The notes beneath the pieces were generated by a model. The model saw only the letters and a program-made list of their open reading frames with translations. It was not told the DNA's origin and made no database searches. 64,000 bases of DNA from an uncultured Gammaproteobacteria bacterium (GTDB taxonomy: Bacteria; Patescibacteriota; Microgenomatia; Levybacterales; GWA1-39-11), in the NCBI GenBank assembly GCA_964485575.1, contig CAZAJO010000004.1, forward strand, positions 25,307-89,306, in the 5' to 3' direction. Positions 4,767 through 42,347 of the stretch are shown here, in pieces. Numbering within the stretch: position 1 is the stretch's first letter; every line of letters begins with the position of its first letter. The position numbers were made by a program, and so were the translations under genes.

Positions 4767-7760
4767 TTAAACAACGAAATTCACGATCTTACCTGATACA
4801 TAAATGACTTTCTTAATATCTTGACCCTCTAATTGTTTCAAAACCGCAACTTTAGCTTTATTTTCAATCAGATTTCTATCTTCAAGATCTTGGCTACTAA
4901 TTTCTATTTCTCCCCTTCTTTTTCCGTTGATTTGCACAGGAATTACTGTTGATGATGAAATAAGATGCTTTTGGTCAAATTCAGGCCAATTACTCAAATG
5001 TATTGATCCCTCCCCAATTCCACTCCAAATCTCCTCTGTCATATGGGGAGCAAAAGGAGCAAGAAGCCTGAGATAAACCCTAACTTCTTCCTTGCTTAAT
5101 TCTTGATTGTTAACTCTTACCTCCTGGTTGAGGTAGTTGTACCACTCCATGAGCTTTGCGATTGCAGTGTTGTAGCCAAATTCGGATATATCTTTAGTGA
5201 CCCCCTGGATGGTTTTATGCATCATCATCGTCCTTTCATTACTCAGTTGTACTTCATCCTTTGATGATTGGGAAAGAAGTTTCCAGACTTTTCGTAAAAA
5301 TCTGTTCATACCCTCTATCCCACTATCCCTAAAGTCTCCACCGTCAGAGTATGGGCCTATGAACATGAGGTAAGTACGAAGAGTATCAGCCCCATATTTA
5401 CCGATGTACTCGTCAGGTACAACGACATTTCCTTTGCTTTTACTCATCTTTGCTCCATCCTTTATGATGAGACCATGAGCAAAGAAAGTAGAAAATGGTT
5501 CCTCGAAGTTCAAATACCCCAAATCGGACAGCACCATCGTGACAAAACGTGAATATAAAAGGTGTAGCACACTATGTTCTGCTCCGCCAATGTACATGTT
5601 TACTGGTAGCCATTTTCTAGTTGTTTCTATATCAAAAGGTGCTGTAGATACATCAGTTGAGGGGTATCTGAGGAAATACCAGCTACTATCAAGGAAAGTA
5701 TCTGACACATCGGTCTCTCGAGTTGCATCTCCCCCGCAAGATGGACAGGTAGTCTTGTAAAATTCAGGATGATTGGCAAGTGGAGCTTTTCCTGTTCCCA
5801 TTGGTTTCCAATCGGAAACTGATGGTAAAAGTACAGGAAGTTCAGCTTCAGAAACCGTAAACCATCCTTCCATGCCTGTTACCTCAGCTTTACCATTTTT
5901 TTGACAAGTTGAACAGAAGATCATAGGTATTGGCGGCCCCCAATACCTTTGTCGGGAAATGAGCCAATCCCTGAGGTGGAAATTGGATTTTCTAACCCCA
6001 ATTTCTCTTTTTTCAAGGTTTGAAAGAACTTGATCCATTTGCTCTGGCATTACAAGATCATTCCAGGTATCAGAATTTGTTAAGATCCCTTTTCCCGTAT
6101 AAGGCTCAACTTTGAACTCATCAGAACTATTTGTTGTATCAAACCCAAGCTCAATTGCCCGAGCTACTCCATGCTTTAAAAATCTTTCCCAATGTCTTAT
6201 ACCCTCAAGATCCGGATACGACAGCCAATTTTCAAGAATCTCTTTTGGCGTTCTCCAAACAAGCTCAAAATTCTCGTGCTCTTCATGTTTTGTAGGTAAT
6301 AAATCGTTGTCTTCTAGAATTACAAGATATCCTGAAGCTTTCGCAACCCTATATGACTTTCGCCCTCCACTGAAGAAATGAGGGTAGGCATCTCCAATCT
6401 TTTCAACGTGTTTGAAATTATGAAGCCCACTTTCTTCTGTCACTTCCCGCATTACGCCTTTTTCCTCATCTTCTCCTTCTTCTGTTCCTCCGGCAAATAA
6501 TCCTAGGAAGTTATCCCGCTCCGGCCAGAGCGCGACTGCATATTTTTGAGTCCTTGGATCAAATATCACACCTGCTCCTCCATCGCGTCTTTCTTCACCA
6601 TCATGAGGATTTCCATTTTCAGGCATGATAACCTGTTTTACAGCTAGGTTATATTTCTTGGCAAATTCAAAATCACGGCTGTCATGAGCAGGAACTGCCA
6701 TGATTGCCCCAGTTCCATAGCCTGAAAGTACATAGTCAGCGATCCAAACAGGAATCTCCTCATTATTTACAGGATTTATCGCTGTAAGGCCTGAATCAAC
6801 TCCAGTTTTTTCTTTCCCCTCCCCAGTTCTCTCAATATCAGTCTTATCCTTAACTTTTTCTATGTATTGCCTTACCTCTTTACTATCTAAAGTTGAAACA
6901 AGGCTGTGTTCGGGCGCAATAACCATGAATGTTGCACCATACAACGTATCTGGCCGTGTTGTAAAAACCTTCAAACTTTCCTCTCGATCTTTGATTTTGA
7001 ATTCAACCTCCGCTCCTTCACTTTTACCTATCCAATTTGTTTGGGCAATTTTGACCTTGTTCGACCAATCAAGACCTTCAATATTTTTAAGTAGTCTGTC
7101 TGCATATTTAGTAATCCTAAAGAACCACTGTTCAAGATTTTTCTTCTCCACTTTTGTGCCGCAACGCTCACACGACCCATCTATAACTTGCTCATCAGAC
7201 AAAACCGTTAAGTCTTTTGGACACCAATTAACAAGAGCGGTATCACGATATGCAAGGCCAGCTTTAAAAAGTGTTACAAATAGCCACTGGGTCCATTTAT
7301 AGTAATTTGGATTATATGTTTCGACCGTACGTTGCCAATCAAACGAGTTTCCAATACTTCTCATTTGCCTATAAAAGTTCTTCTCAGCAATCTCTGCCTG
7401 TTCTTTAGGGTGTCTTCCTACTTTTAAGGCATAGTTTTCACTATGAATACCAAATCCGTCTAACCCGATAGGCTCAAGAACATCCTTCCCTTGCATGCGT
7501 TGAAATTTTGCGTATACATCGGCACCAGTAAATGCGTACATATTGCCTACATGAAGCCCCTCTGCTGAAGGGTATGGGAACATCATGAGGTTAAAATATG
7601 GGTTCTTTGCTGCTTTTATATCAGGGCTAAAAGTCCTGTCACTCTCCCATTTCTCTTGCCATTTAGCCTCAATATCTGCTGGTATATATTTATTTTCTGC
7701 TGACTTTTGCTGCTTCATATAGACATCCTCTATTCTATCAAATCCAAGTACAAACTTCAC
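4767..7760 (-). CDS. leuS: Leucyl-tRNA synthetase carrying an internal NUDIX-hydrolase-like insertion; the true start is more likely the Met at 7718
   Basis: Class I HVGN (HIGH) and KMSKS motifs, and the CP1 editing motifs TTRPDT and AVPAHDSRD. A perfect Nudix box GGTEEGEDEEKGVMREVTEESGL lies between the editing region and the RDW/RYWG segment. Confidence 0.93.
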   Translation of the reverse strand: MKFVLGFDRIEDVYMKQQKSAENKYIPADIEAKWQEKWESDRTFSPDIKAAKNPYFNLMMFPYPSAEGLHVGNMYAFTGADVYAKFQRMQGKDVLEPIGLDGFGIHSENYALKVGRHPKEQAEIAEKNFYRQMRSIGNSFDWQRTVETYNPNYYKWTQWLFVTLFKAGLAYRDTALVNWCPKDLTVLSDEQVIDGSCERCGTKVEKKNLEQWFFRITKYADRLLKNIEGLDWSNKVKIAQTNWIGKSEGAEVEFKIKDREESLKVFTTRPDTLYGATFMVIAPEHSLVSTLDSKEVRQYIEKVKDKTDIERTGEGKEKTGVDSGLTAINPVNNEEIPVWIADYVLSGYGTGAIMAVPAHDSRDFEFAKKYNLAVKQVIMPENGNPHDGEERRDGGAGVIFDPRTQKYAVALWPERDNFLGLFAGGTEEGEDEEKGVMREVTEESGLHNFKHVEKIGDAYPHFFSGGRKSYRVAKASGYLVILEDNDLLPTKHEEHENFELVWRTPKEILENWLSYPDLEGIRHWERFLKHGVARAIELGFDTTNSSDEFKVEPYTGKGILTNSDTWNDLVMPEQMDQVLSNLEKREIGVRKSNFHLRDWLISRQRYWGPPIPMIFCSTCQKNGKAEVTGMEGWFTVSEAELPVLLPSVSDWKPMGTGKAPLANHPEFYKTTCPSCGGDATRETDVSDTFLDSSWYFLRYPSTDVSTAPFDIETTRKWLPVNMYIGGAEHSVLHLLYSRFVTMVLSDLGYLNFEEPFSTFFAHGLIIKDGAKMSKSKGNVVVPDEYIGKYGADTLRTYLMFIGPYSDGGDFRDSGIEGMNRFLRKVWKLLSQSSKDEVQLSNERTMMMHKTIQGVTKDISEFGYNTAIAKLMEWYNYLNQEVRVNNQELSKEEVRVYLRLLAPFAPHMTEEIWSGIGEGSIHLSNWPEFDQKHLISSSTVIPVQINGKRRGEIEISSQDLEDRNLIENKAKVAVLKQLEGQDIKKVIYVSGKIVNFVV

Positions 7761-7784
7761 TACAACGAAGTAAGTGGATTAATC

Positions 7785-7878
7785 GCGGGTGGCTAGCGGG
7801 GGGAGACCCTCACTGAGCATCCGCAGTGAAGCAACGCGAAACGAGGATTGTCGAGTGAGGAGCGACGACAGAACCCGC
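7785..7878. ncRNA. GC-rich structured RNA-like repeat, family 1 copy A (orientation undetermined)
   Basis: About 95 nt, near-identical to 9623..9718. Closing stem GCGGGU/ACCCGC and internal stem CCUCACU/AGUGAGG. Both stems show compensatory substitutions in copy B. Confidence 0.4.
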
Positions 7879-7889
7879 ACTTCTTGGCA

Positions 7890-7920
7890 GGAACCCAAAA
7901 ATTCTGATTTGTGCTACAAT
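7890..7920 (+). promoter_or_regulatory. Putative extended -10 promoter (TGcTACAAT) ahead of the Clp_N gene
   Basis: tttgtgctacaat at 7908..7920; the -35 is weak. The Clp_N ATG at 8043 is preceded by an aggag RBS. Confidence 0.3.
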
Positions 7921-8042
7921 CCCCCTATCGCTTTGCGGTTAAATAACGCTCGGCCTTTTGGCCTTAGCTTGCGTTGTGTTGGCCGTGAGGCTCGCACATT
8001 AAAAACGCAGGAATTATTCGTAACTACAGCAGGAGTACGTCA

Positions 8043-8498
8043 ATGAATCTGGAAGAACTCTATTTATCCGACCCTCTCCGAAGGACACTCATCCTTGCAG
8101 GTGACGAGGCCAAACGCCTCCGTCGTAAGGAAGTGTCCACCCTAGACATTGTCGCAGGGATGCTCCTTGAAGGAGAAGGAACTGCGGCAGTAGCCCTAGC
8201 ACGATTCGATGTGGACATCCATGCATATCGCCGTGCAGTCGGCAGAATTTTTGGAGAAGGGAAATCACCTCCAAATCCACAGATTGTCTTTACGCACAAG
8301 GCAGAAAAAGCGCTGATCGCCGGACGGGAAGTTGCTGACTGCCTCAACCACGTGACCACCGGAACCGGTCATGTCTTAATCGCTGTCACACGCGACGTGA
8401 GATCTGATGCCGCCGGAGTTCTGCAATCACTCAGGGTGAACCTTGATAATCTGAGGGCAATAGTCCTCACGATCATCTACGATTACCCTGGTCGGTGA
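8043..8498 (+). CDS. Clp N-terminal domain (double Clp_N repeat) protein, GC-rich
   Basis: STLDIVAGMLLEGEGTAAVALARFDVD and a second repeat match the ClpA/ClpC N-domain pattern. Codon third positions are strongly G/C, unlike the flanking genes. Confidence 0.7.
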   Translation: MNLEELYLSDPLRRTLILAGDEAKRLRRKEVSTLDIVAGMLLEGEGTAAVALARFDVDIHAYRRAVGRIFGEGKSPPNPQIVFTHKAEKALIAGREVADCLNHVTTGTGHVLIAVTRDVRSDAAGVLQSLRVNLDNLRAIVLTIIYDYPGR

Positions 8499-8564
8499 TG
8501 GTGCAACACATCCTACGGTGAGCTACTCGCTCACCCCGAACCCCTAGTTTTTGGAGGTGCCCAC

Positions 8565-8897
8565 GTGGGCGAGCAACTATCGGAATCCAGCCAAGATCAA
8601 GAGGCTGGCGAAAAGCCAAGGGCAGGCAGGGCGTCAGACCCTAAGCCCAAGCACCCAGGCACAGTCCTTGAGCGGCTTACGGCCATCCTCGTCGAACAAC
8701 TCGGCGTTGAAGAGGAGGACGTTACCCTAAGTGCCAACTTCGTTGACGACCTCAACGCGGACTCCCTCGACCTCGTCGAGCTCATCATGTCCCTGGAGGA
8801 GGAGTTCGACTCCGAAATCCCTGACGAGGACGCGAAAGCCATCACGGACGTCCAGGCGGCACTGGACTACCTCCGCGACCACGGCGTCGTCGACTAA
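8565..8897 (+). CDS. acpP: Acyl carrier protein (AcpP-like) with about 30-aa N-terminal extension; GTG start with GGAGG RBS
   Basis: [58 protein letters not shown] is near-canonical AcpP, including the DSL phosphopantetheine attachment site. GC-rich codons. Confidence 0.75.
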
Positions 8898-8922
8898 CGC
8901 CCTACCTGCGTTTTCAACCAAG

Positions 8923-8955
8923 AGGCGCCCTTCGGGGCGCCTTACCTTTCTTTGA
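8923..8955 (+). terminator. Intrinsic terminator after acpP-like gene
   Basis: aggcgccc-ttcg-gggcgcct hairpin with UUCG tetraloop, followed by tacctttctttg. Confidence 0.6.
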
Positions 8956-8989
8956 CTCTTTTTCAAATTTGAGATACCATTAACCTTAT

Positions 8990-9613
8990 ATGAGAAGCAA
9001 GCAGATTCTTGAAGGTTCCTCTATAGTCCTTGCAGTATTTTTCGTGTTTTTAGTACAAAATACCGTTCTTATCACTTATAATTCCTATTTGCTAGCCATA
9101 CTTATCATTTTTTCCGCCATATACATCAGCCTCAAAAGAAGATCAAAGTCTCCATCTTCCCTTTTCTCCGGTAGCCCTGTTGAACTCTTCGGACTCATAT
9201 CAATAATAGTACTCATGGTCAGCCTCACAAATGGACTTTCTTCTCCCCTATTCTTCTTTCTTTACTTCATCTTGTTCTTACTTGCATTCATGTGTGAAAG
9301 TATAACCATATGGATATTTTTGACCTCAATTCTACTTTTCTTCCTACCGATAGTTCTGCAGAGTGTGTCCTCTGATTCGCTTATCAAAATGGGATCACTA
9401 GTGCTAATTTCCCCTATAGCCTATTTCATCGGTAGGGAATTTGAGCGTAGACAACTCCTAAACCGTAAGATAGAAAGCAAAACTGATGAAATCATTCAAG
9501 AAGCAAGACTGCTAAAAGAGGATGGAACCCCTAAGGGTCAAGATGAATCTGAGGCTATTGATGAAATAATTGAAGAAGCCTCATCACTTAAAGAAGATGC
9601 ACAAACTGATTAA
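8990..9613 (+). CDS. Polytopic membrane protein with acidic C-terminal tail (hypothetical)
   Basis: Five or more hydrophobic segments, C-terminal E/D-rich region, native low-GC codon usage. Confidence 0.55.
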   Translation: MRSKQILEGSSIVLAVFFVFLVQNTVLITYNSYLLAILIIFSAIYISLKRRSKSPSSLFSGSPVELFGLISIIVLMVSLTNGLSSPLFFFLYFILFLLAFMCESITIWIFLTSILLFFLPIVLQSVSSDSLIKMGSLVLISPIAYFIGREFERRQLLNRKIESKTDEIIQEARLLKEDGTPKGQDESEAIDEIIEEASSLKEDAQTD

Positions 9614-9622
9614 CAATGATTT

Positions 9623-9718
9623 GGGGTGGCTAGCGGGGGGAGGCCCTCATCGAGCACCCGCAGTGAAGCAACGCGAAACGAGGATTGTCGGATGAGGGAG
9701 GAGCGACGACAGGACCCC
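9623..9718. ncRNA. GC-rich structured RNA-like repeat, family 1 copy B
   Basis: Same element as 7785..7878. Closing stem UGGGGU/ACCCCA and internal stem CCCUCAUC/GAUGAGGG are the compensated versions of copy A. Ends 8 nt before the ATG at 9727. Confidence 0.4.
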
Positions 9719-9726
9719 ATTTAAGC

Positions 9727-10500
9727 ATGAATAAAAAAAGTATCACAACTATTCTTTTCTCACCAAAAGGAACTGCAGTATTCCTTACGCTCAACTTTGC
9801 CCTTTTTTGCCTATTTTTAGGTAAGAGTATTAGTGCGGAAACGATGTCTAATTCATCGTATAAAATCAGGTTTGGCAACCTCAATTCATTTGCTGGCAAA
9901 CCTTCAAATGCCTCATATAGCCTTGGAATAACAGGAGGACAAATAGCCCCTGGTCTTTATTCGGGTACAAATTTTAAAGTTAGAGCAGGATTTCAGTATA
10001 TAAAATCAATAATCCCCTTCACCTTCAAGATAAGCAGCGTATTTATCGACTTTGGACCCATAACACCAGGAACACCTATTACACGCACAAATACACTCAC
10101 CATTTCAAACGGTTCTGCTTATGGATACACAGTTCTTGCAAGTGAAAATCACCCTCTTCTTATCAATAGCACGGGTATTTCCATACCTGATACCACATGC
10201 GACAGTGGTACATGCACAGAATCAGTAGCAGCCGCCTGGACAAATCTTACTACATTCGGTTTTGGATACCGCTGCGACAATATAACAGGAACAGACTGCC
10301 AATCTGGATTTAGCACAGCCACAAACTATCGACAGTTTTCGGCTAGTAACTCCGGTGAATTAGCCTATCCTGTGATGCGTGGGGTCAATGTTGGACGTAA
10401 TATCCAAAGTCAGATCACATATAAAGTCAATGTTAGTTCCACCCAAGCAACTGGGGAATACCAAAATGTCATATCTTTCGTTGCTGTTCCTTCTATCTAA
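9727..10500 (+). CDS. Secreted protein with N-terminal signal peptide (hypothetical); the ORF-track start at 9685 is a TTG inside the RNA element, so ATG 9727 is preferred
   Basis: MNKKSITTILFSPKGTAVFLTLNFALFCLFLG is a signal-peptide-like N-terminus; the rest is a Ser/Thr/Asn/Gly-rich body. Confidence 0.6.
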   Translation: MNKKSITTILFSPKGTAVFLTLNFALFCLFLGKSISAETMSNSSYKIRFGNLNSFAGKPSNASYSLGITGGQIAPGLYSGTNFKVRAGFQYIKSIIPFTFKISSVFIDFGPITPGTPITRTNTLTISNGSAYGYTVLASENHPLLINSTGISIPDTTCDSGTCTESVAAAWTNLTTFGFGYRCDNITGTDCQSGFSTATNYRQFSASNSGELAYPVMRGVNVGRNIQSQITYKVNVSSTQATGEYQNVISFVAVPSI

Positions 10501-12653: not shown

Positions 12654-15600
12654 ATGGAATTATTAGAACTATTCAAAAGACAATTAGCATCAAAATCAGG
12701 ATCATCTTCGAAGAATACAATCAAGAATTATGTTTCAGATGTACGTCATTTTATAGCTTGGTTTGAGGCTATAACAGGATCAAAATTCGACCCTTCGTCG
12801 GTCACTACAGATGTTATTCTTTTATATCAAAATGGCTTGGGAGGGCTCGTTTTGAATGGCCAGTTACAGAGTGGCACCCAATTGTCAGCATCATCCATGA
12901 AAAGACACTTATCCTCAATAAGGAAATTTTTCACAGTCCTTGAGGCAGAAAATGTAGTCCGTGAAAACCCTTTCACAAAAATTATCACGGAAGAGTCTGT
13001 AGAACCGACGGATTATTGGCACTTAAAATCTTTTAAAGATTATTTGATGCTGGGAAATGCTTCAAAGATCACCGTCAAAAATTACCTTTCGGATATTTCC
13101 GGTTTTGCTAGATGGTATGAAGAAGCAATTCTTCCTACTATCGAGAGTCCGTTGAGCTCAAATCAAGGTTTTTATTTAATAACTCAGTCTGTGGTTGAAG
13201 ACTATCGAAAAAGGCTTGTCGAGATTCAAAATGCAGCTCCACGAACCATAAATAGAAAGCTTTCTGCGCTGCGCCGTTATCTGGAATTTGCAACAAGAAA
13301 GGGATTTATTACTAACCAAGAGATAAGTGTAAGCTCGGTTGAAGCAGACATTGCTGACGATGTTGCCGACCTTCCAAAAGTTGCATTATCTGAAATGTCT
13401 GAGAAGCTTTCTCCTCAAAAAAGATCTTACTCAAATATCCCTCCTGTCCGTCTGATTCAAAAACTCCTAATCAACCCATATCTTCTGCTTGAAGAAGGTG
13501 CAGCAAATGCAATAACAGGGTTTTTGATAGGTAAAAAAGTAACTGGTATTGCCAATTTGCCTCAGAAATTATCTGCTCAGATTGCTACTAAAAATGCGCT
13601 CAGAATACAAAATCAAGGAATAAGTACTCTTCTAGGTGTCCGAAATATTGAAAAAGAATTTTATGCTCCAGACAAAGTTTCTCTCTCAGGGTTGCCTGTT
13701 CATCAGAAATTAATCCATCATGTCAGGTTTACTAGACCTAATTGGTATAAAAGATATCATAACTATGCATTTGTTCATTACGTGCATTTTGCCCTACTCG
13801 TCATTTTCGCCGCCGGTGTTGGTGTTGCTTTGTATCAGAATTTAGTAGTGCAAAAACAGACACCAACCTTTGCCGCAGCTACTGCCCCACCTAGAATTCT
13901 TTCATTTCAAGGAAGACTTACTGATGCACTAGACAATCCTATTACTTCTCCTCAACCTGTCAGATTTATGATTTACAATAGCCTTGCTGCTACAGGTGCT
14001 GCTGAACTGTGGGAAGAGACAAGGACAATCAGTCCAGATCAGGATGGTATATTCTCAGTACTTTTAGGTAGCGATTCGACCGGCGCCAATGCTTCTTCTT
14101 GCGGATCTTTCCCTCCGGGAAGTCCATACAACACCGCTTGTCTTATTCCCTCAACAGTCTTCTCTGACAATAGTCAAATTTGGCTTGGTGTAACTATTGC
14201 TAACAGCACTGAGCTAGCACCGCGTCAAAAAATAGCTACCGTCGGATATGCAACAAATTCTGAATTTCTCCAAGGACTTCCTCCAACATCAGCTGTCAGT
14301 AGTTTTGTGAATGCAGTTCTCGCCCTTGATAGTACCGGAAGTTTTAATCTCAATGACGGTATCGAACACACATTTCAGGTCAGTAACGGCACCCTTACTC
14401 TTAAAGCACAAACCCTCAATCTAACCACGAGTCTTGGAACAAATGGAAATATCATCCTAAATCCAGAAGGGCTCGGTAAGGTTGATATACAAAAACCCAT
14501 CATCAATAACTCTAATACAGGCAATCTAGTGAGAGGTGGGGTTGAGATAAATGATAGATTTGGAGTTCTAGCTACCGAATCAGCAGTAGCTGCATTTATC
14601 GTTAACAATAATACGACTGGTGGAGATATTTTTGCTGCCTCTTCTTCTGGTACAACTAAATTTAAGATCGCCAACGATGGTTCTATCACTTCTGGATTTT
14701 ATACTGGTCAGAATGCAGTATTATATGGCACCCAGACTACTGGATTGATAGCTCAAGCAACCACAGCCTCAACTGGTCTTTGTCTTCAATCAGGTGCTTC
14801 AACACCAACGTGGGGCACGTGTGGGTCAAGCTACTGGAACCTTACGACTGACAATGGTGCATTAACCCCATTCAGTAGCACTCTTGACTTACTTATTGGC
14901 GGTCAGTCTACTGCATCTGCTAAATTCGCTTTTATTAATAATGCTTCAGGTGCACCAACCGCCTCTATCTCTGGCAATCTAGCAATCGCTGTGCCAACAG
15001 GAGCAAGTGGGGCAAATCTTTTTAATATTTTTAACGGGGGAAGCCTCAACTTTCAAACTTCAGGAGGAGGTAACGCTGGCCTTACTTCTCGTCTATTTAT
15101 AGCAAATGACGGAAGAATCGGTATAGCAACAACAAGTCCTATTGCTAAAAATGCATTAGATGTTAGGGGGATAAGCGGAACTGGCTCAACTGCAACAATA
15201 TCTGCTCGCTCTTCCTTTGCTGCCCTTGTTGTTAACAATGATGGTCTAGGGGATATTTTTGCTGCAAGTGCATCTGGAGTGCAGAATTTTGTCGTTAAAA
15301 ATAATGGTGATATCATTGTCGGACCCGATGGCGGTGGGAAAATAACAGCAGCAATAATTGATCCTTATCTCGTACAAAACCAAAAAACGACTGGAATTAC
15401 GAGTCTTACCTTACAGACAATGGGGGGGGCCGGGGCTGATATCATATTTTCTAATCAAAGTAGCGATCTTGTACATATCCTTCAAAATGGAAATGTAGGA
15501 ATAGGTGTAACCAATCCTACTACCGCAAAACTTGTGGTTGGTGGGGATATAGGCGCCGATGTAGTAGGACGAAATATAGGCTCACTCTCTATACCATTTA

Positions 15601-18600
15601 ACAATCTCTACGCAAATAATATCATCGCAACCGGTCCGGTAAGCGGATTTTGGGGACAGACACTTGGTTCACTCTACCCTGCAAACCCTACTGTTGATCT
15701 TCTAATCGGAAGCTCTGCGACTTCAACCGCTAAATTTGCAGTACTCAATATCAACACAGGTACCCCTACTGCATCAGTATCAGCTCAAAATGCTGGAGGA
15801 CAGGCATTAGTTCTTGCAAGCGATGGATCGATACAGACAACAAGAAGAAACAGTCTGGCAATTGGAGGCTCTTCCACAGGGTCTATTCAGTTCTTACCAA
15901 ACAATAATTCTGTGAATCTATTCCTTACTGGTTCAAATGCAGCAATCGGCAATCAAACACCTCAAGCGGCACTAGATGTCAGCTCTTCTTCACTAATCTC
16001 ATCTGTCGTCAATAAGATCGTTTTTGGAAGCATTGGTACGGCAATGGGATCATTGGGTTATGATGGATCGTCTTTCAATGAAATCAGGATTGGTGCCACC
16101 TCAAATGTAGGGCTTGAGCTTATAACAAATGACACCGTTAGAGGATATTTCACGGCTACTGGACTTTTTGGCCTGGGTACTGTAAGTCCTGTAGCTCAAT
16201 TACAGGTTAATGGAACCAATGGATCAAATGCTACAGTCATAATAAATCAGGGTAATAATGGTGATATACTCGCGGCATCTGCCTCAGGAACAACAAAATT
16301 TGTCATCAAAAATAATGGAATTGCCTCTTCATCAGCTGGGTTCACAATTGACGGACTGGGCGCTTTACAAAGTACAAATTTTCAGACTCTAACTATTGGT
16401 GGAAATTCTACCGGTAACGTTGTAGTCTCACCAAATAACGGAAGTGGCCAGATTCAATTTACAAATTTCACATCTGCAGGTGGACTACTTTATACTGGGG
16501 CAACTGGTATATTAGCACAGACTAACGTAGGTTCTGGTACACAGTGCTTGCTTGGAGGAACAACTCCTACCTTCGGGACTTGTGGAGGACCATTTAGAGA
16601 ATTGACAGCTTTCGGAACGATTGTTGAGAGCAACACAACTGAAGACTTCTTGCTTGGAGGTGTGGCAACCTCTAGTGCAAAATTTGCTGTACTTAACATT
16701 GCCGGAGGTACTCCTACTGCTTCTGTTTCTGCTCAAAATGCAGGCGGCCAGGCTCTTGTTCTTGGAGGAGATGGCACTATTCAGGCTGTCAGAAACAATA
16801 ACCTCACACTTGGTGGAAATACAACAGGAAGCCTCGTACTGGCAGGAACTTCAATTCAATTAAGCGCTACCAATCCTATCATTGACTTGACGACAGCCTC
16901 GACTCTTTCAATAAACACAACTACCAATAGGCCAATAACTACGGGTACCGGACTTACGACTTTGGGAGGAAATCTTACCGTCAATGGTGCTACCACGTCA
17001 CTTGCCTCAACAGCTATTACCCTGACAGGGTCATCTCCAATAATTGATCTAACTTCAGGCACAACTCTTTCGATAAATACAACTACAAACCGTCCTATTA
17101 CAACTGGGACTGGACTAACAACTCTGGGTGGAAATCTCACTGTAGCTGGTGCCACGACTACATTTAGCAACGCAACTCCAGTTCTAACCTCAAACACCGA
17201 TACTTCACTGACTATAACCCCAAATGGAACAGGAAATCTGATCCTGACCTCTGATCTGGATACAGGAGTAAAAATTGGTGCTTCAACAAATACTCTTGCC
17301 CCACTCTCTGTTTCGGGTGGAATTGGTGGGAATGCTCTCTCAATATTCAATCAGATAAATGGTACAGATATATTAGCGGCTTCGGCTTCGGGTGTTAGTA
17401 AATTCGTCATCAAAAATGACGGTACTGCTTCCTCATCAGCTGGTTTTACCGTTGATGGAATAGGCACAATTCAAAGCACACGAAATCAAACTCTTACTGT
17501 TGGCGGTGGATCGACTGGCAATCTTGTACTTGGAAAAGCCTCACAAACCCTCACACTTCCTGGCTTTACAACAAATGGAGGGTTACTTTATACAAATGCT
17601 TCAGGAGTTTTGGCACAAACAGGTACTGGTGGGGCTACTCAGTGTCTTTTGGGAGGAGCAGGTACTCCAACATTTGGATCATGTGGAACTGGGGTTAACT
17701 CCAGTCCATTCTATGAAATTCCTGCACCAATTGGCGTTATTGCCCAGGCCAACCTCACTGAAGACTTTTTACTTGGAGGACTTGCAACATCAAGCGCAAA
17801 ATTTGCCGTTCTTAACATTGCTGGAGGTACTCCTACTGCTTCTGTTTCTGCTCAAAATGCTGCTGGTCAGGCTCTTGTTCTTTCAGGAGATGGAACAATC
17901 CAATCTACGAGAAATAACAGTCTCACGCTTGGAGGAAATACAACAGGTAGCTTGGTACTAGCAGGAACATCAGTACAGCTCTCAGCTACCAATCCTATCA
18001 TTGACCTAACAAGTTCAAGCACTCTATTCATTAATACAACTACTAACCGTCCTATTACAACAGGTACTGGACTTACGACGCACAACGGAAATCTCACAGT
18101 TGCAGGGGCTACAATTACTTTCAGTAATGCCTCCCCTATCATCACATCAAACACAAATACAGACCTGACAATAACCCCAAATGGAACTGGGAATTTGATA
18201 TTAACCTCAGATCTAGATACAGGAGTAAAAATTGGAAGTTCAACCAATACTATTGCCCCTTTGTCAGTTTCTGGGGGCATTGGATCGAATGCTCTTGCTA
18301 TATTTAATCAAATTAATGGTACAGATATATTAACAGCTTCGGCTTCGGGCGTTAGTAAGTTCGTCATCAAAAACGACGGAACTGCTTCTTCATCAGCAGG
18401 TTTCACCATTGATGGGATAGGCGCTATTCAATCAACTCGCAATCAAACTTTAACAGTAGGTGGTGGAGCTACCGGTAATCTTGTGATTGGTCGTACTGCA
18501 CAAACTGTTACCCTTCCTGGATTTACTACAAATGGAGGATTACTTTATACAAATGCTTCAGGAGTTTTGGCCCAAACAGGTACTGGTGGGGCTACTCAGT

Positions 18601-21600
18601 GTCTTTTGGGAGGAGCTGGTACGCCAACATTTGGATCGTGTGGAACTGGGGTTAATTCCAGTCCATTCTATGAAATTGCCGCTCAGGGAATTATCGTCCA
18701 GGGAAATACCTCTGAGGACTTCCTCTTGGGAGCAACTGCAACATCTAGCGCAAAATTTGCCGTTCTTAACATCGCTGGTGGAACACCTACCGCATCGGTC
18801 TCAGCGCAAAATGCTGCCGGGCAGGCACTAGTTCTTGGATCAGATGGTTCAATCCAGTCAACAAGAAATAACAATCTTACAATTGGTGGTAATACAACAG
18901 GAAGCCTTGTACTTCCTGGAACATCCATCCAACTGACAGGAAACAATCCTGTAATTGACCTTACTACAGCCTCAACTCTTTCGCTAAATACTACAAACAA
19001 CCGTCCTATCACAACTGGTACCGGTACTTTTACTGTTGGTTCAGGAGGAACAGGAACGATTGCTATGAATGGAAGTGCTATAACAACGACCACAACATCA
19101 GTGAGTCTATTTGATGCCAATGCGACCACTATAAATTTTGGGAGAGCAGGAACAAATAATATTAACTTAGGAGGTACGTCAGGAGCACTTAATGTAGGAA
19201 ATGGTGGTAGCTATACTATTCAAACTACATCAAATGGACAACTTAATGTATCAGCTGGGTCAGGCCTTTTAACCCTAAATACTCTTTCAAACGGAGCTGT
19301 AACAACCGGAAATGGACTTACAACATTGGGTGGCAACTTGACTGTGAGTGGAACGACTATTTCTCTTGCTGGTACATCTCCTACAATTTCCACGACAGGA
19401 AGCAACAGCCTTACACTAACAGCAGCAGGAGCAGGCAGTCTAACCCTCTCCTCTGATTCAGATAGCTCAATATTTGTAGGCAACGCTACTACTCCAGCTC
19501 CTCTATCGATATCTGGAGGTATTGGCAATAATGCAGCTTTAGTTCTCAATCAACTTAATTCTACAGGTAATATCTTTTCGGCCTCGGCATCTGGAGTTAG
19601 TAAATTCGTTATCAAAAACGATGGCACAGCCTCTTCATCAGCAGGTTTTACGGTTGATGGGATCGGCAATATCCAATCTACCCTCAATCAAACACTTACG
19701 ATCGGTGGGGGCTCAACAGGAAATCTGATATTAGGTAAAGCAGCCCAGACTCTTACCCTTCCAGGGTTTACCACCAATGGTGGACTATTCTATACAAATG
19801 CGTCAGGGGTACTTGCCCAAACAGGTACTGGTGGGGCAACACAATGTCTACTTGGAGGAGCTGGTACTCCAACATTTGGTTCATGTACAGGAGGATCTAA
19901 TACAAGTCCATTCTATGAGTTCCAAGGAGCAATAGTCCCGGGCAACACCACCGAGGACTTTATCTTGGGTGGAACCGCATCAAGCAGCGCTCGATTTATC
20001 GTAAATGGCCTTGCGACCGGAATCTCCCCTACTGCTTCTATATCTGCTACAAACGGTAACGGAATATATCTTTCTGCACAAAACGGGACCATCCAGTCTC
20101 TAAGAAACAACACTCTTTCAATCGGAGGAAACACTACTGGAATAGTTGCAATAAACCCACTGGCTGCAAATTTCACAGGTATTGGGACTTCTAATCCTAT
20201 AGCTTCTCTTGATGTTAGAGGGTCACTTGGAATTATTGGTGGTGGAACTCTTGCTGTTGCTTCAATATCTGGAAGAACTTCATATGCAGCTCTTGCCGTA
20301 GACAATTTAAGTACCGTAGGAGATCTATTTACAGCTTCATCATCCTCAAATATGCAATTTGTCATCAAAAATAATGGATTTGTTGGCCTTGCAACTGCGG
20401 CTCCGACTGCCCGGCTTGATGTCAATGGTTCAGCCTCGATTTCAAGTGCATTAACATTTAGGACGGGGTCCGGAAGTATTCAAACAACTGCCTTAAATTC
20501 TCTTAATATCGGAGGGAGTACAACAGGAAATCTGATATTTAACCCTAACGGAAATAATCTCATCGGTGCTGGTACCTCAAGTCCGCGTGCCTCTTTTGAT
20601 ATCAGAAACGCTTTGGGGGTTGTTGGCGGGGGAACATTTGCTATAGCTTCAGTCTCGGGTAGAACTTCTTTTGCAGCTCTAACAGTAGACAATAGTTTAG
20701 GAGACTTATTCACAGCTTCATCATCAGGCTTAACAAGATTTGCTATTTCGCAAAATGGAAATGTAGGAATTGGAACAGGTACTCCACTTTACGCATTTGA
20801 TGTTAACAAAAAAACAGCAGCCTTCAATTCAGGCCAGGATGGCACGATTTCAAGCTGGACTAACACAACCGATACTGGATTGAGTGGGCAGCTGGAACAA
20901 TTTGGCCTCGTGTTCATAAATGGATACGTCTACCACGTAGGCGGATATGATGCACCCTCAGTACTTGATACAGTAAGATATGCAAGAGTAAAAAATGACG
21001 GAACACTAGATAATTGGGTAACAAGTCCAAATGTTCTTCCAGAGGCAAGACTTTGGCATGGAACTGTGACAGTTAATGGATATATTTACTCAATTGGTGG
21101 TCACTCAAGTGTTGCTTCACCTACAAATCCTGCTGTTTACTACACTAAAGTCAATTCAGATGGAACAATTAGCAGCTGGGGGTCAACAACTCCACTTCCA
21201 TCTCCCAGGATAAGAATTACACATTCTGTTGCAACAGCAAATGGATATATTTATGTTGTTGGAGGAGAAAATAGCTCAGCTCAAACTACTGTATGGTATA
21301 CAAAAGTAAATGCTGACGGCACGTTGGGACCTTGGCTTACAGGTTCCTCATTGCCAGTTGCTACCTCAGACAATGCAGTGGTTGTAGATAATGGATACAT
21401 ATATTCTATGGGAGGGCTAGCACCTGCAGCAACAAATGCAATCTATTATGCAAAAATTAACTATGATGGATCGATAGGACCATGGATTGGAAATCCCAAC
21501 AATCTTGCGTCAGCTGATTCGATGCATAGTGGAATTGTGGTGAATGGTTTTGTATACATTCTTGGGGGGATAAATAATTCTACAACCGTTTATTATGCAA

Positions 21601-24600
21601 AATTCAACGCTAATGGAACTATACCTGCTTTTTCGACAAATCCTGCCTCTCTTCCTGATGGTCATCAAGGAAGCGGTATAACGTATGGTAATGGCTATAT
21701 CTATATTTCCGGAGGATTTGCTACTGACAATGTAGCTTATGGATCAATTGCAAGAGTGTCTCTAGCTGCTAACTTAGACCTGTTAGGGTTGACCTCAACA
21801 AGTATAGCGAGTTCATCTGGGCTTGCTGGTGGAGGTAGTATCTTTGCAGGTAATATATTTGCCAAAAATCTTGAGGTAGGTGGAAGCGGAACCGTTTGGG
21901 GAAATCTTGCAGTATCAGATACCCTTTCGGCCAAAACTCTATCAATTTCTGGTCGGATTACTGGTAAAGCCCTCACTATTATTAACGAAACAGGTAATCA
22001 GGCTATATTTTCTGCATCTGCTTCCGGAGTTACTAAATTTACCATCGGCAATGATGGACAAGTCATGATAGGCAACATTGCTGCTGACCCTTCAACTGCC
22101 TTGGGAGCAGGATCTATATATTACAACACAGTAAGCCAGGCTCTAAAATTCTATAATGGTTCGGCATGGGCCACAATAGGTACGGGGAGCTCATCGTCAG
22201 GTCCATTTGGAGTACTTCAAGGAGCAATCGTTCCGACAAATACGACGTATGACTTTCTCCTTGGAGGAACAGCAACATCCTCTGCTAAATTCGCCGTACT
22301 CAATCTTTCAGGAACAGCAACTACTGTTGCATCGGTATCTGGCAACTTGGTTGTTATGCCTACAAATGGTACAGGAGGACTCTTGTCGATTGGTACGACA
22401 AATCCTTCTTCCAAATTACACATATTTGAATCTGTTAGCGATGTTGCAGTAACTATCGAGACGCAAGGATCAAACAAAAGTGCTAACCTAAATCTGCTTA
22501 GCACCAGTAATACTGCAGGACAAATATCCCATTTTGCTTCAGGAGTACGACAATGGATGATTGGTAACAATGGGGACATCACAGCTGGTGGAATTGGCAT
22601 ATATACTACTTCAAGTAACGCTAACCGGCTTGCCATATCTTCTACAGGCAACGTAGGGATTGGAACGGCGCTCTCTCCAACAGGAGTAAATCCTACGTCC
22701 CCCCTTCAGGTATATGGACTGAGTACTCAACCTATCGCTTCAATATCAGGTAAAACTTCGGGACCAACCCTTCTTCTAACAAATGATGGAAGCGGTGACA
22801 TACTAGCCGCTTCAGTATCCGGAGTTCAGAAGTTCAGGATCAACGCTACTGGCGATCTTATTATTGGAGACGGATCAGGGAAAATATACGGAGGAGGATT
22901 TGACCCTCTCTATACAATCGATGGCAAGAAATTTTCTACATACGCTTCAAGCATCAATGGTATGAAAGAAGAATATATCGGTACTGCAAATCTTGCCTAT
23001 GATCCTGCCGCTGGAGGATATGCTTATACCCTTGATTTCAACAATTTTGAGTATGGTACTGAGTTATGGACTTTCTCTCGGGTAATCGATCCGGATCTTA
23101 CTAAGGTCAATGTACTTCTCACACCCACTTCTCAAGCAAGGACCTGGTTCAGGCGTGACCCGGTCAACAGAAAACTCATACTCTATTCAGACAGACCTAC
23201 GTCAGTCACATACAGGTTCACTGCACCTCGTTTTGATTATGCTTTGTATCCTTCTTCGGATCATTCCCATGATATTACTGGTTTACAAGCACCAGCGGCT
23301 CCAAACACTACCGGGACAGGTGAGGCTGATCCTATGGATTCTTTCTTTGCATCTCTTTCCATACAATTTAACAATGGGATGTTCACGATACTTGATGGAT
23401 TTGGCAACTTAGTTCATAGGGTCGATGGGTTCTCAAACCTCATAGCAGCAAATCTTGAGGCTGGTTTTATCCACGCAAGGAATTTGGCTGCAGATACTTT
23501 TTCAGCAGGAAGTGCATCATTGGGTAATGCAACAGCAAATACTTTTGCAGTAGCTGCGAATACAATCACTATTGGTGGACAAGATATCAGGCAATTTATC
23601 ATAGATACTGTTACTGCAGCAGGATTTGGCCAAAATACAATCATTTCCCCTCTTGCTGAGGTAGAAACAATAAAAACAAATACTATCAGGTCTCTTACTG
23701 AAGGTGGAGATATAAATGTGAAAGGAAAACTCATCACAGAGTCAGACAGATCGGCTACTGATAGTTCAGTAGTCTCACTTGACGTGAGAGGATCAGCAAC
23801 TATTTCAGGCTCACTAGCAACAAATTCTATCCAAACTAACGATGCGACTATAGCTGGAACCCTTCGCGCAGGAAACCTTATTGCTGACAATATCCAAGGG
23901 CTTGAGGATAAGATTTCCTCAGTAGCCTCACAATTCGTCAACAATCATGCAGCAACTCTAGCAGTAGGTACTGTACGGGCTGATTTTGGCATATTTGAAC
24001 AAGGAATAACCTCAATGGGACCAGTGACTGCCAATATCCTTACTGCAACAGATCAATTGGCCGTAGGAAATAACTTTACAATCTCAAACAATGCAATAAA
24101 TACAGTAGGATCTGATCTTGCCATACAGTCTTTGAGACAAGGTGCTATAGCATTTCAGGGTGGGCTTATCCGCATGGATACAGATGGCAATATGACGGTC
24201 AACGGTAATTTCAACCTTCTCGGCGAAATTGATGCGGTATACGGAGTATTTAGTGGTACTCTCACTACCCCAGCCCTTACTACAGATCTCATTTCACCTG
24301 TAGCTGATTCGAATATCTCTCTTTCATTCAAAGATTCTAAATTTAATATTCAGAATTCCAAAACTGCTTCCGGAAGTGCTGTGCTATCCATAGACAATAA
24401 AGGGAACATACAGTCGTCAGGATCTGCAACATTTGCAAAACTCAATTTCAATCTAGTTGGAAAGGCTGAAGCAACAAGTCTTTCAGAAGCGGTAGCTACT
24501 GGAAGCGCAGGTTTTGCTTCACTCAGAGCCGGACAACCAGAACTAACCATAAAGAACAATATCATTACATCAAAATCATTGATCTATATCACACCATTTG

Positions 24601-26001: not shown

Positions 26002-29000
26002 TTAATGACATGCTACGTTATATGAATGACTTGGGGAGACCTGTGATGTACACCCACTATTAGTAAAGTACCAATTAAAGTCGGTAAGACTGTAAGTACC
26101 TTGGTTAGAAGGCGCACTAGCCCCACAGGCCGATGGATGTTGACCAACAGTATGACCCGTACAATAGAGAATTGATCCAACTGAAGTACAAACACCAGTT
26201 CCATTATTATCTTTTATCCAGCCTGAACCAGTGGTAGTTCCAGTACAGTAGTCTACAGACTCTTTAACCGATGAGTTGTTACAATCATAGTCATAATCTC
26301 CATTCAACCCACTTCCTGTTGGGGTTGAGAAGTATAAGGTCTGTCCCGGAAATACATTTGCGTTAAGATCATAACAGTCAGCAGTTCCTGAAGCTGAAGC
26401 TCTGTATCCATATGCTAAGGATGAACCAGAGCAAACGGACTGAGAGCCACCGGTAGTGTAAGTGTCATTGTCTGCATCTGAGTATCCAGTTATATTTTGC
26501 CATTTCCCTCCATCGTCATAATTATTATTGTCACCATTGTTACCAGATTGTGCGCAATCTGTACCGGAAGACACACTTACACCAGGCCTTAAAGATGCAC
26601 CAGAACATATCTGTGATTGGAACGAAGGATTAACGCCGTCGCTATCGTTATCTGGATACCCTGTTGAAAGCATTTGATAGTAAGAGCTAGTAGTATCGTC
26701 ACAATCCGTATTATCGGTAGACCACCCTGAAGCAGGAGCTCCAGTTAAACACTGTACCTGCGATGTCTGAGCCAATGGTTTTATAGACATATTGATACCT
26801 AATATAGTTGTACCTCCAGGAGAACTCTGGTTAAACTGAGCCCAATAGGTAGCTTTATTTCCATTATATTTACGATATACTCCAACTAAAGAGTCATTTG
26901 AAGCATACTGAATAAAATAATCACTATACAATTCGTCCCCAAACCCAGGGGCTGAATAAAATACTTTTGAAGAACTCCCTGAATTAGACCCGCCAACTTG
27001 TAAATATAAATCGCCTGCAGTGTAGGCTATTGATGCATCTGAGACAGAATTATATGAACCAGCTGCTCTAATAGGAGCACTTGTTGCTACGTTACTAAAT
27101 GATGTAATAAATCCCTGAGAAGCACCGGTTGATGAGCTTAATGTGAACGCATATGAAGCCCCTTCACCGCTTGCATATTTGTACCAGACATCTAATCCGG
27201 TATTTGTTCCATTATAGGAACTTCTAACTAAATTCCATGTACCGCCACCCGCTGGAGCGCTGACTGTTCTATTACTCCCTCCTTCGTGCTCCACAACAGC
27301 TATCATAAACATACCATCGACTATATCAGCTGGTTTATTAATGGTTAGTGTCGTACCACTGGAAATCGATGCTTTAGTAGTAATCCCATTAGTAAAACTT
27401 GGTCCATTATTACCGTGTCCGTCCAAGTCATTATCAGAGTATACTGTTGTATTGGTACAGCTTGCCGGAGTTGTTAGATTAACTACATTTGATATTGCTC
27501 CTGCTCCTGCGGCATTTTTTGCCCTAACTGCATAACTATAATTTGTAGTTTGTGATACGGTTGAATCACTTAATGAGGTTGAAGCTGTGCTATTAAGCGT
27601 AGCTGAAGGGGTACAATTACCATTACATCTTAATAAGTCATATCCATTAGTAATAGCAGGTACCGCTCCACCTACTTGTGTTCCGCTCCACGATGCATCA
27701 ACCCTGTTGTAGACAGGTGCAGTTGCGCTAAACGATGAAGGTGCGCAAGGCGCACCGCTGGGATTGTCCTGACAGTCAGTCGTTGCTGAAAGTTTTTGCC
27801 CATCAGGAAGCCAGGTGTTCGCATTTGAGGTGTCTTTGTAATATGTTCTTCCACTCACCTGCGTTGGTGTTCCAACGCATTGCGCGGCTGCGGCTGCAGA
27901 GGTTTTATAACCATCATTATCTGCATCTGTTACTAATCCGTCAATAGTCCTAAAAGTGTAGGCGTTGTTAGGATTACAATCTACTGAAGCTGAAGCGCTT
28001 GCCATCTTCCAAGCATAATTATAATTTGTAGATAGGGTATTTCTTCTAACAAATTCAGATGCAGCTGATGGTGTTGAGCCTACATATTGGGTCTTGTCAT
28101 CCAGTATCCCATCACCGTCTTTATCATGGACAAATACTCCACCCTTCTTCAATGATCCTCCGCGGGCAATAACGAGTGATGAATTAGGCTTTTGGAGTTG
28201 GAAGCTTCCAAATGCAACTTGTTGTGAAGGACCAATTGTCATTTGCGCAGTTGTACTAAGAATTAGTGACCCTGTGTTAGTGGTTCCTGAACCTGTGTCT
28301 ACTCCATTGAAATTACCATTTAGGTTACAGGTTGCAGAGGCAGGAATTGTAAGATTTCCTGAAGCTGGTGGGTCGCAAGGACTTGCCGGACCGTCCCCTG
28401 TTGTAAATGTCGCAACTGTTGCTCCACCAGTCGTACCATTAGTATTTATAGCAAATGAGCAATACCAGTATTGTGTATTAGGCTCAAGAAATGTGTTGGC
28501 ATTTGGTGGTATGGTATAAGTAAATGTGTGTGGGCTACTATCTGCACCTATCACTACGTCATTTCCTGATGACTGAGGATACCGGATTCCAAGGCTGTCA
28601 CTATTACAATTTCCAGGAGTTGTAGTATACACCCTAAAGTGACCAGTTGAGGCTGAGGAATTAGGGTTGGCTACTCCAGACAGAGTTACGTAATACGAAT
28701 TGATACCTGTCGGTGAATTTGTGTCTACTCCAGTTGGATTTACATTCAAAGTAGTAAATGTTCCGACATTTGAATACCCATAACCCACCGAATTATGAGC
28801 ATACGCAACGAAAGAATAACCAGTATTTTGTGTAAGACCGCTTATTGTCTGTGTGAAGCCAGTTGTCGCTGTACCACCTTCAGGAGTACAAGTAACTCCT
28901 GTCCCACCAGATTGTGGATTTGAATTAGTTGTTGTTACTGAATAACAAATACCACGCGCGTCAATAGCTTGAGTTCCAGCTGATGTAACCGTGCCACCTA

Positions 29001-42177: not shown

Positions 42178-42208
42178 TCCGGTGGCCGACTTCTCTGTAT
42201 ACCAAGCT

Positions 42209-42239
42209 CGGGATGGTCCCCTTCGGGGGGCCGTCCCGG
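42209..42239 (+). terminator. GC-rich UUCG-tetraloop hairpin immediately after the island-2 gene (terminator-like; weak U tract)
   Basis: cgggatggtcccc-ttcg-gggggccgtcccgg. Confidence 0.4.
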
Positions 42240-42347
42240 CAAGAGAGGGGAGGCGCTAACACCGCTTCCAAAGAACAAACCGGGCATGCCCGGCAGAACG
42301 CTTTGGAGTCGATTGCCTCCCCCCTTTCCCCCTGTACATAAAAACTT

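Follow-up and report, generated by a model that had tools for sequence, protein, structure and literature searches.

The stretch of DNA analysed here, referred to as the window, comprises 64,000 nucleotides (nt) of contig CAZAJO010000004.1 (assembly GCA_964485575.1, positions 25,307 to 89,306 of the forward strand), deposited under the name of an uncultured Gammaproteobacteria bacterium and placed by GTDB in the Levybacterales of the Patescibacteriota. Between leuS and a gene for a 207-amino-acid (aa) membrane protein, the AT-rich sequence of the window gives way to a GC-rich cassette, which extends from its own promoter to its own terminator and contains, in this order, a conserved leader RNA with a predicted structure, the gene for a stand-alone Clp N-domain (Clp_N) protein, a short hairpin and the gene for an acyl carrier protein (ACP) of the AcpP type. 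The features of the region are as follows.

4767-7718, - strand: leuS, the left flank, divergent from the cassette; GC 0.41, GC content at third codon positions (GC3) 0.34; Pfam tRNA-synt_1, editing and anticodon domains
7787-7878, + strand: dispersed GC-rich repeat, copy A, outside the cassette; second copy at 9624-9717
7912-7920, + strand: extended -10 promoter TGCTACAAT; TGnTAnAAT kept in relatives, no recognisable -35
7927-8024, + strand: conserved 5′ leader RNA, ~98 nt, predicted to fold into three hairpins (alignment, covariance model)
8043-8498, + strand: stand-alone Clp_N protein, 151 aa, Shine-Dalgarno sequence AGGAG at 8031-8035; Pfam PF02861
8517-8535, + strand: pre-ACP hairpin GGTGAGC-TACTC-GCTCACC, 5′ of the ribosome-binding site of the ACP gene
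8565-8897, + strand: AcpP-type ACP, 110 aa, GTG start, Shine-Dalgarno sequence GGAGG at 8553-8557; TIGR00517, PF00550
8922-8953, + strand: intrinsic terminator with a GC-rich 9-bp stem (8922-8943), TTCG loop and tail ACCTTTCTTT (terminator scan)
8952-9613, + strand: right flank, with a TTGACT-17-TACCAT promoter and the 207-aa membrane protein gene at 8990 (promoter scan)

The block at 7785-8955 has a GC content of 0.555, compared with 0.398 and 0.396 in the neighbouring 1.2 kb, which confirms the abrupt compositional step with AT-rich sides described in the initial annotation of this DNA. Over all 1171-nt windows of the stretch the mean is 0.405 (standard deviation 0.04), and this sliding-window analysis singled out the block as one of only two places at which the GC content reaches 0.50 or more, the other lying at 40.5-42.3 kb. 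At a resolution of 200 nt, the value rises from ~0.40 to 0.50-0.61 between ~7700 and 8950, and then returns to 0.38-0.40. The earlier estimate of roughly 60% GC holds for the ACP gene (GC 0.604, GC3 0.74) but not for the block as a whole or for the Clp_N gene (GC 0.526, GC3 0.49). The sequence on either side, leuS to the left (GC3 0.34) and the membrane protein gene at 8990 to the right (GC 0.38, GC3 0.36), is native low-GC DNA, as had been proposed, and the other open reading frames (ORFs) of at least 120 aa in the window have a GC3 of 0.19-0.38, with the exception of the second GC-rich islet. The block therefore differs from its surroundings as an acquired island would, both in GC content (0.555 compared with 0.405, standard deviation 0.04) and in the GC3 of the ACP gene (0.74 compared with ~0.3). 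The cassette proper spans ~7910 to 8943; the first ~95 nt of the island as originally reported are a separate dispersed repeat.

Both cassette ORFs have good ribosome-binding sites and lie within a single promoter-to-terminator unit. The self-contained character claimed for this unit was upheld: the extended -10, the GGAGG/GTG start and the UUCG-loop terminator could all be located in the sequence, and the Pfam and TIGR models bore out the identification of a Clp N-domain protein and of an AcpP with a DSL site. In the alignment, the extended -10 matches TGnTAnAAT or is invariant in the window and in L001, L004, L016, L019, L022 and L032 (related loci are denoted by L numbers), and the sequence immediately 5′ of it is completely different from lineage to lineage. 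A simple promoter scan overlooked the cassette promoter because it has no -35. The terminator has the GC-rich stem-loop and T-rich tract of a rho-independent terminator and is also kept in L001, L004, L016 and L019, and L020 carries a different hairpin. It forms the right end of the cassette, and native DNA restarts at GCCTTACCTTTCTTTGACTC, a sequence common to L015, in which the site is empty. At the left flank, the start codon of leuS is most likely the ATG at 7718 and not the GTG at 7760.

Two further readings of the coding content were discarded. An 85-aa ORF at 7789-8046, which covers both the repeat and the leader, has no Pfam match, and its reading frame is not conserved; we regard this sequence as non-coding. 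The Clp_N and ACP genes share a frame in the window, with no stop codon after the TGA that separates them, which would allow a read-through fusion; this frame relation is broken in L001 by a 1-nt insertion or deletion. In one lineage with the ACP only (L004 ~9650-9682, also L005), the heptamer CTAATCA is repeated five times in tandem directly 5′ of the cassette -10.

The ACP scored 95.8 bits against TIGR00517 (cutoff 70.45), 104.1 against NF002148 (cutoff 71) and 47.7 against PF00550 (cutoff 20.8); its score of 105.4 against NF002149 is slightly below the cutoff of 106, and against the mycobacterial AcpM model it failed, with 55 bits and a cutoff of 146. The predicted phosphopantetheine site is Ser67 in the DSL motif, which aligns with the AcpP serine, and the core is ~60% identical to E. 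coli AcpP. The protein resembles the AcpP of type II fatty-acid synthesis (TIGR00517/PF00550) in its four-helix core, its DSL serine and its helix II recognition surface, and the 18-residue segment comprising the acidic helix II and the DSL motif is invariant among all cassette alleles and Chloroflexota ACPs. It differs from ordinary AcpP in an additional N-terminal extension of ~32 aa (MGESLSESS...KPK.PGTV), which is lineage-specific and probably disordered and of which the first residues, MGESLSESS, are conserved, and in its occurrence in a CPR (candidate phyla radiation) lineage thought to lack fatty-acid synthesis. In protein searches, its relatives formed a small clade at 60-94% identity, followed by thousands of ordinary ACPs.

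A neighbourhood of fab and pls genes is typical of AcpP, though not strictly defining. Unlike the AcpP of type II fatty-acid synthesis, the cassette ACP is an orphan, with no fabD, fabG, fabF, plsX or acpS within 10 kb; a Pfam search found no fab or pls genes, nor any other enzyme that uses ACP, within 10 kb on either side in any relative or anywhere in the 64-kb window. The enolase encoded in the window shares 85% identity with a protein of Ca. Levybacteria, and the gene content is typical of CPR bacteria, with glycolysis, comEA and comEC, giant surface proteins and no lipid genes. It had been remarked at the outset that an orphan AcpP would be unexpected in a CPR genome, and this remains so for a genome identified as a Levybacterium by its enolase and without fab or pls genes near the ACP. 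CPR genomes have been reported not to contain complete lipid pathways (PMC7242380).

The ACP is always intact, and its dN/dS among six alleles is 0.20-0.39. Together with the invariant helix II and the changing upstream gene, this indicates that the ACP is the selected component of the cassette, and comparison of the alleles points to it as the constant core under purifying selection, to which Clp_N would be accessory.

The gene order leuS (-), cassette (+) and 206-aa membrane protein gene (+) recurs in L001/2, L004-7, L016-18, L019 and L020-24. Identical or orthologous junctions are found in more than 10 independent assemblies, from JGI, from ENA (megahit and SPAdes) and from several Logan data sets, and both junctions are spanned in long contigs (49 kb from JGI, 145 kb and 23 kb from ENA, 28 kb from SPAdes and 33 kb from Logan). 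Since the same gene order appears in contigs of JGI, ENA and Logan, a mis-join is excluded, and the view that the contig is not chimeric was borne out by junctions reproduced across projects and assemblers and also in diverged orthologues.

The ACP alleles at this site are 56-80% identical in protein, with a pairwise dS of 0.40-1.71, and in every lineage their GC3 is 0.65-0.75, compared with 0.29-0.40 for the flanking genes. As GC-rich syntenic alleles are found despite this degree of divergence, the cassette is not recent in the window genome, and the recent acquisition proposed in the initial annotation is contradicted. A recently acquired block would be absent from close relatives or almost identical to its donor; here, diverged alleles are present in at least five lineages, and the best DNA identity to any outside sequence is ~70%. 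It had also been reasoned that syntenic low-GC orthologues in related genomes would speak against acquisition. Orthologues are indeed syntenic, but they are high-GC rather than low-GC, and some siblings are empty at this site.

The empty sites were found by a scan with the native membrane protein. In two sibling metagenome-assembled genomes (MAGs), L014 and L015, leuS lies 160-185 nt from the membrane protein gene, with no GC rise and no leader, and the site is therefore polymorphic. These sites show loss or gain of the cassette, and not its recency in the window genome. leuS is the neighbour in all relatives, and the membrane protein is present in relatives with and without the cassette at 75-94% identity; the membrane protein gene of the empty L014 is 99% identical (dS 0.09) to that of the cassette-bearing L020. 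Both L014 and L015, which are GTDB-representative MAGs, are titled 'uncultured Gammaproteobacteria bacterium', a label that is probably wrong, given their Levybacteria-like gene content and similarity.

The position between the leader and the pre-ACP hairpin is a slot of variable content. It holds Clp_N in the window and in L001, a Clp_N pseudogene with an internal deletion and no start codon in L016, what is left of a different, decayed ORF in L004, a 93-aa ORF in L019, and ORFs of 72 aa and 157 aa in L020. The alternative cargo ORFs had no match in Pfam, PADLOC or PHROG. The pseudogene remnants of L016 and L004 are still ~50% GC, and the non-homologous cargo genes upstream of the ACP are likewise GC-rich.

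The Clp_N ORF of the window scored 41.6 bits against PF02861 (cutoff 20.7, E 1.4e-10), with two repeats, and its best PDB matches are the N-domains of ClpC and ClpC1 (~1e-19, full-length alignment). The ORF stops at residue 151 and has no AAA+ module of a Clp/Hsp100 unfoldase, indicating a stand-alone N-domain rather than a Clp ATPase. Among 5.8e9 proteins only one other 90% cluster was found, at 79% identity (L001/L002). Outside the clade, the protein is 32-36% identical to single repeats of multi-Clp_N proteins of Actinoplanes and Chloroflexia. Like the stand-alone ClpC N-domain proteins of the mycobacterial ClpC2 type (PDB 9p2p, 8ad9, 8b9o), which are also among its PDB matches, it consists of one double-repeat Clp_N domain without AAA+; in contrast to these, it is only ~30-36% identical to any outside protein and is dispensable, as sister lineages have only a pseudogene or other content in its place. 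It could possibly act as a mimic of the ClpC N-domain, and its lower GC3 suggests a history separate from that of the ACP. A role in a defence system was considered and set aside, as PADLOC recognised neither of the two cassette proteins, none of the alternative cargo ORFs and none of the neighbouring genes.

The leader is better conserved than the coding parts, with a mean column identity of 83% over 7 lineages, and its 3′ strand, ACGCAGG, adjoins AGGAA. The covariance model found exactly one copy per cassette-bearing locus, and none in the empty-site loci or elsewhere in the 64-kb window. In the alignment 96.9% of the cells are paired, compared with 25-43% in slid controls. Three of the 23 pairs are changed on both sides, and none of 500 shuffles reached the same covariation score, in a set of 10 distinct sequences in which 13 of the 23 pairs never vary. 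The pre-ACP hairpin precedes the ACP in all lineages, whichever gene lies upstream, and in L020 its stem (GTCCAGC...GCTGGAC) is fully compensated relative to GGTGAGC/GCTCACC.

None of the three RNA elements (leader, pre-ACP hairpin and dispersed repeat) matches an Rfam family, whether the whole window is searched at gathering cutoffs or 7700-9000 and 9590-9750 at E values up to 10. A pattern scan for the leader in JGI metagenomes gave 38 matches, one of which was real (L032, the same locus type), and in IMG/VR it gave two, both chance matches in coding sequence. Since these scans yielded only one further true instance, the leader is not a widespread motif; nor was it found beside Chloroflexota acpP. 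The leader and the dispersed repeat are two candidate new structured RNAs.

All named near matches of the ACP outside the cassette clade belong to the Chloroflexota (Dehalococcoidia, Tepidiformaceae, Ca. Amarobacter and others), at 74-76% protein identity. The C-terminal motif DYLxDHGVxD is common to the cassette and Chloroflexota ACPs, and the L019 allele retains a Chloroflexota-type insertion after EEF. The Chloroflexota relatives are the housekeeping acpP of a yceD-rpmF-fabD-fabG-nusB-acpP cluster, with a GC3 of 0.66-0.78. In contrast to these proteins, which sit in a fabD-fabG-(nusB)-acpP context, the cassette ACP has a private promoter, leader and terminator. The window ACP gene is ~70% identical in DNA to Chloroflexota acpP and its third positions are 40-46% identical, near saturation, which implies that the transfer is old and that its donor cannot be named. 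The suggestion of an actinobacterial donor or host is not supported, since the named ACP neighbours are all Chloroflexota, the AcpM model failed and Clp_N is 32-36% identical to outside proteins. A phage origin was likewise rejected: the proteins fall only into generic PHROG families, and a search of GenBank phages found no close homologue, the best identities being 47-62% for the ACP and 29% for Clp_N.

The divergence of the ACP does not follow that of either flank. Between the window and L004, dS is 0.41 for the ACP and 1.5 for leuS and is saturated for the membrane protein gene; between L004 and L016, it is 0.58 for the ACP, 0.28 for the membrane protein gene and 1.2 for leuS. The ACP distances match those of neither flank and the flanks are mutually discordant, so that the region, to judge from these comparisons, is a recombination mosaic, for which the simplest account would be gain and loss of the cassette and replacement of its alleles by way of the conserved flanks. 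The competence genes comEA and comEC adjoin the region. At the borders there are no att-like direct repeats, target duplication, recombinase, integrase or transposase, and the cassette replaces spacer DNA; nor is there a tRNA or tmRNA gene that could have served as an integration site. With the direction of substitution set by majority-rule polarisation, synonymous third positions of the ACP alleles have undergone 30 changes from strong (G or C) to weak (A or T) pairs (S>W) and 11 in the opposite direction (W>S), and the consensus GC3 is 0.79, compared with 0.65-0.75 now. Both the excess of S>W changes and the consensus GC3 above the present value indicate that the GC content of the ACP gene is decaying.

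Taken together, these data suggest that the locus is probably a horizontally acquired, moron-like expression cassette, of which the constant, selected part is a Chloroflexota-type AcpP. Foreign origin is the best-supported reading, not a proven one. Phage morons are promoter-gene-terminator units of deviant GC content. Like morons and other small islets, the cassette is an autonomous unit with its own promoter and intrinsic terminator, odd composition and presence or absence among close relatives; it differs from morons in being chromosomal in a CPR bacterium, without phage context, long retained, and in having a selected core gene and a conserved leader. Transcription would start from the extended -10 promoter and proceed through a ~115-nt 5′ untranslated region with the leader, the variable cargo, the hairpin and the ACP gene to the terminator. 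Long ago, and only once, the cassette would have been acquired by the Levybacteria clade from a bacterium of high GC content whose ACP resembled those of Chloroflexota. Since then it would have been inherited, lost and, by homologous recombination in the conserved flanks, exchanged among lineages, with amelioration only partial. The ACP would be phosphopantetheinylated at Ser67 and would carry acyl chains; for an organism that does not synthesise fatty acids, these would most likely be scavenged ones bound for membrane lipids. The ORFs upstream of the ACP, Clp_N included, would be dispensable passengers, and the leader and the pre-ACP hairpin may control the stability or the translation of the mRNA.

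Several observations weigh against this interpretation. No donor has been identified, and the Chloroflexota origin rests on a 75-residue protein with a best DNA match of ~70%; furthermore, the CPR and the Chloroflexota may themselves be related lineages. The excess of S>W changes is below that predicted from the native S>W:W>S ratio (p ~0.05, from a rough hand binomial on the same counts), and the cassette ACP gene, although it has accumulated many synonymous changes, has the same GC3 as the ACP genes of Chloroflexota today; its GC content may thus be actively maintained rather than not yet decayed. Slow amelioration and weak active maintenance cannot be told apart on these counts. As the flanks themselves have discordant histories, allele exchange and a general mosaicism are not clearly distinguishable. 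Clp_N (GC3 0.49-0.55) and the ACP (GC3 0.65-0.75) may have arrived separately. The independent leader sequences are few and most of their pairs invariant, and the minimum-free-energy z-score of -1.06 is unexceptional. Finally, the acyl-carrier function of the ACP is pure inference.

A high-GC piece mis-joined into a low-GC contig, by chimeric assembly or contamination, would account for the abrupt change in GC content, and short-read assemblies do break nearby (Logan contigs of ~1.85 kb). These breaks, however, lie within the flanking dispersed repeat and not at the GC boundary, and with the junctions spanned in long contigs of different projects and assemblers, and in diverged orthologues, the chance of such an artefact is practically negligible. 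The sharp step, the private promoter and terminator and the empty site in some siblings would also suit a recent acquisition by the window genome from a high-GC donor, possibly the actinobacterial host of an epibiont, particularly as Actinoplanes is among the sources of the best Clp_N relatives and mycobacterial ClpC1 among the top PDB matches. We nevertheless consider this very improbable: GC-rich orthologous cassettes occupy the same site with ACPs that are 20-44% different (dS 0.4-1.7), no named neighbour of the ACP falls outside the Chloroflexota, its AcpM score is 55 bits where 146 are needed, and Clp_N is just 32-36% identical to the Actinoplanes and Chloroflexia proteins.

Two other explanations take account of the persistence of the cassette or of its build. 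The ACP could be native and vertically inherited, its high GC content being imposed and maintained by selection at the mRNA level, on structure, stability or the control of translation. This would fit a GC3 held at 0.65-0.75 through many synonymous substitutions with no reduction in the W>S rate per site, an ACP dS that is 2-3 times below that of leuS in the same pairs, and the conserved structured RNA elements on the transcript. In addition, the CPR and the Chloroflexota are neighbours in some bacterial trees, which would explain the affinity of the ACP. Yet the cassette is confined to one narrow clade and one locus, with close siblings empty, non-functional remnants in the slot are still ~50% GC and non-homologous cargo genes are GC-rich too, and these genomes contain another GC-rich islet that is unrelated to the cassette; a native origin is, on balance, quite unlikely. 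Alternatively, the cassette could travel between lineages as a moron or as cargo on a mobile element of Levybacteria, such as a phage or plasmid, the chromosomal site being a recurrent landing or recombination spot. Such an element could have the promoter-gene-terminator build, the deviant GC content and the variable cargo slot, would explain presence and absence between near-identical backgrounds and the incongruent genealogies, and could draw on ACP and Clp_N families that do occur in phages (PHROG 5934 and 35667). There is, however, no integrase, transposase, att-like repeat or target duplication at a site where spacer DNA has been replaced, no true leader match in IMG/VR, no close ACP or Clp_N in GenBank phages and no PADLOC match, and we regard this explanation as unlikely.

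If a foreign AcpP has indeed been selected and long retained, it bears on how acyl chains are handled in the CPR/Patescibacteria, a group whose membranes are thought to be built from scavenged lipids. An AcpP from outside the phylum would point to an ACP-dependent step in lipid salvage. A distinctly improbable extension of this idea is acyl-chain piracy, in which the Levybacterium would keep a copy of its host's Chloroflexota-type carrier, with identical helix II, so that enzymes derived from the host, or steps that depend on acyl-ACP, could load or read it; the N-terminal extension and the private, GC-rich, structured mRNA, with a new leader responsive to a ligand or a protein, would tune delivery or expression in the episymbiosis, and the GC content would be actively maintained. 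The locus also provides a natural example of a foreign islet that has stayed GC-rich through divergence, which bears on the speed of amelioration in small AT-rich genomes, and it is of interest chiefly for the biology of lipid salvage in the CPR and as an illustration of amelioration. For groundwater Patescibacteria, acpP has been predicted to be a gene received from other prokaryotes, and was discussed alongside lipid scavenging by CPR bacteria deficient in fatty-acid synthesis (Gios et al., mSystems 2025, PMC12455944). That report is a one-line MetaCHIP prediction without locus anatomy, whereas the cassette is documented here with its structure, leader, alleles, empty sites and Chloroflexota affinity. 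With the transfer of acpP into Patescibacteria already reported, what is new here is the conserved leader RNA absent from Rfam and the persistent GC-richness.

The dispersed repeat at the left edge of the block is ~92-115 nt long, with a GC content of 0.63-0.66, and occurs twice in the window (7787-7878 and 9624-9717). Copy A separates the promoter region of leuS from the cassette promoter, and 9 nt lie between the end of copy B and the start codon of the gene at 9727. Further copies are present in L014 (6164-6277), L022 (50-176) and L032 (~1550-1680), together with a degenerate copy at the empty site of L014. Its terminal helix covaries (GCGGGT/ACCCGC, TGGGGT/ACCCCA, TTGGGT/ACCCAA), as does its inner helix (CCTCACT/AGTGAGG compared with CCTCATC/GATGAGG), and an internal insertion is variable. 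The 1.85-kb Logan contigs start and end inside repeat copies. In L016-L018 the cassette is present without the repeat, and the repeat is neither a part of the cassette nor needed for it; we consider it a candidate new small RNA or an element of Levybacteria resembling repetitive extragenic palindromes or miniature inverted-repeat transposable elements (REP/MITE). A reading of 7787-7878 as a T-box or RNase P RNA, prompted by a likeness to GGGTGG...ACCGCG and ACAGAACCCGGC, was dropped, as there was no Rfam score and the element is multi-copy.

The second GC-rich islet of the window lies at ~41000-42340 (GC 0.59, GC3 0.77). It contains an ORF on the + strand (41245-42177) for a 310-aa membrane-anchored protein, which had no Pfam, PADLOC or PHROG match and for which the AlphaFold model has a mean pLDDT of 33, and its own CCCCTTCGGGGG hairpin lies downstream. 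In L065-L068 the islet has the same neighbours (order rho, DUF11, islet, GT2) and is just as rich in GC. A third rise in GC content, to at least 0.52 at 61100-61550 on the - strand, was not retained as an islet, since it reflects only a Pro/Gly/Cys-rich stretch in a 924-aa protein with an SdrD_B domain. Small genes for 23S_rRNA_IVP/bAvd-like four-helix bundles are found at varying intergenic positions around both islets (L001 11661-12038, L004 6562-6921, L065 1190-1555 and 2979-3143) and are missing at the matching places in the window.

In the LeuS protein of the window, a NUDIX hydrolase domain (PF00293, 33.9 bits) is inserted at residues 384-496, just after the editing domain; its Nudix box, GGTEEGEDEEKGVMREVTEESGL, is perfect, and the LeuS of relatives (852-901 aa) has no such domain. 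Giant surface proteins are predicted at 12654-24737 (+ strand, 4027 aa) and at 26002-31137 (- strand, 1711 aa); the orthologue of the 4027-aa protein in relatives has Phage_int_SAM, LVIVD and Kelch matches, and the 1711-aa protein has matches to TLDc, Laminin_G_3 and DUF2341.

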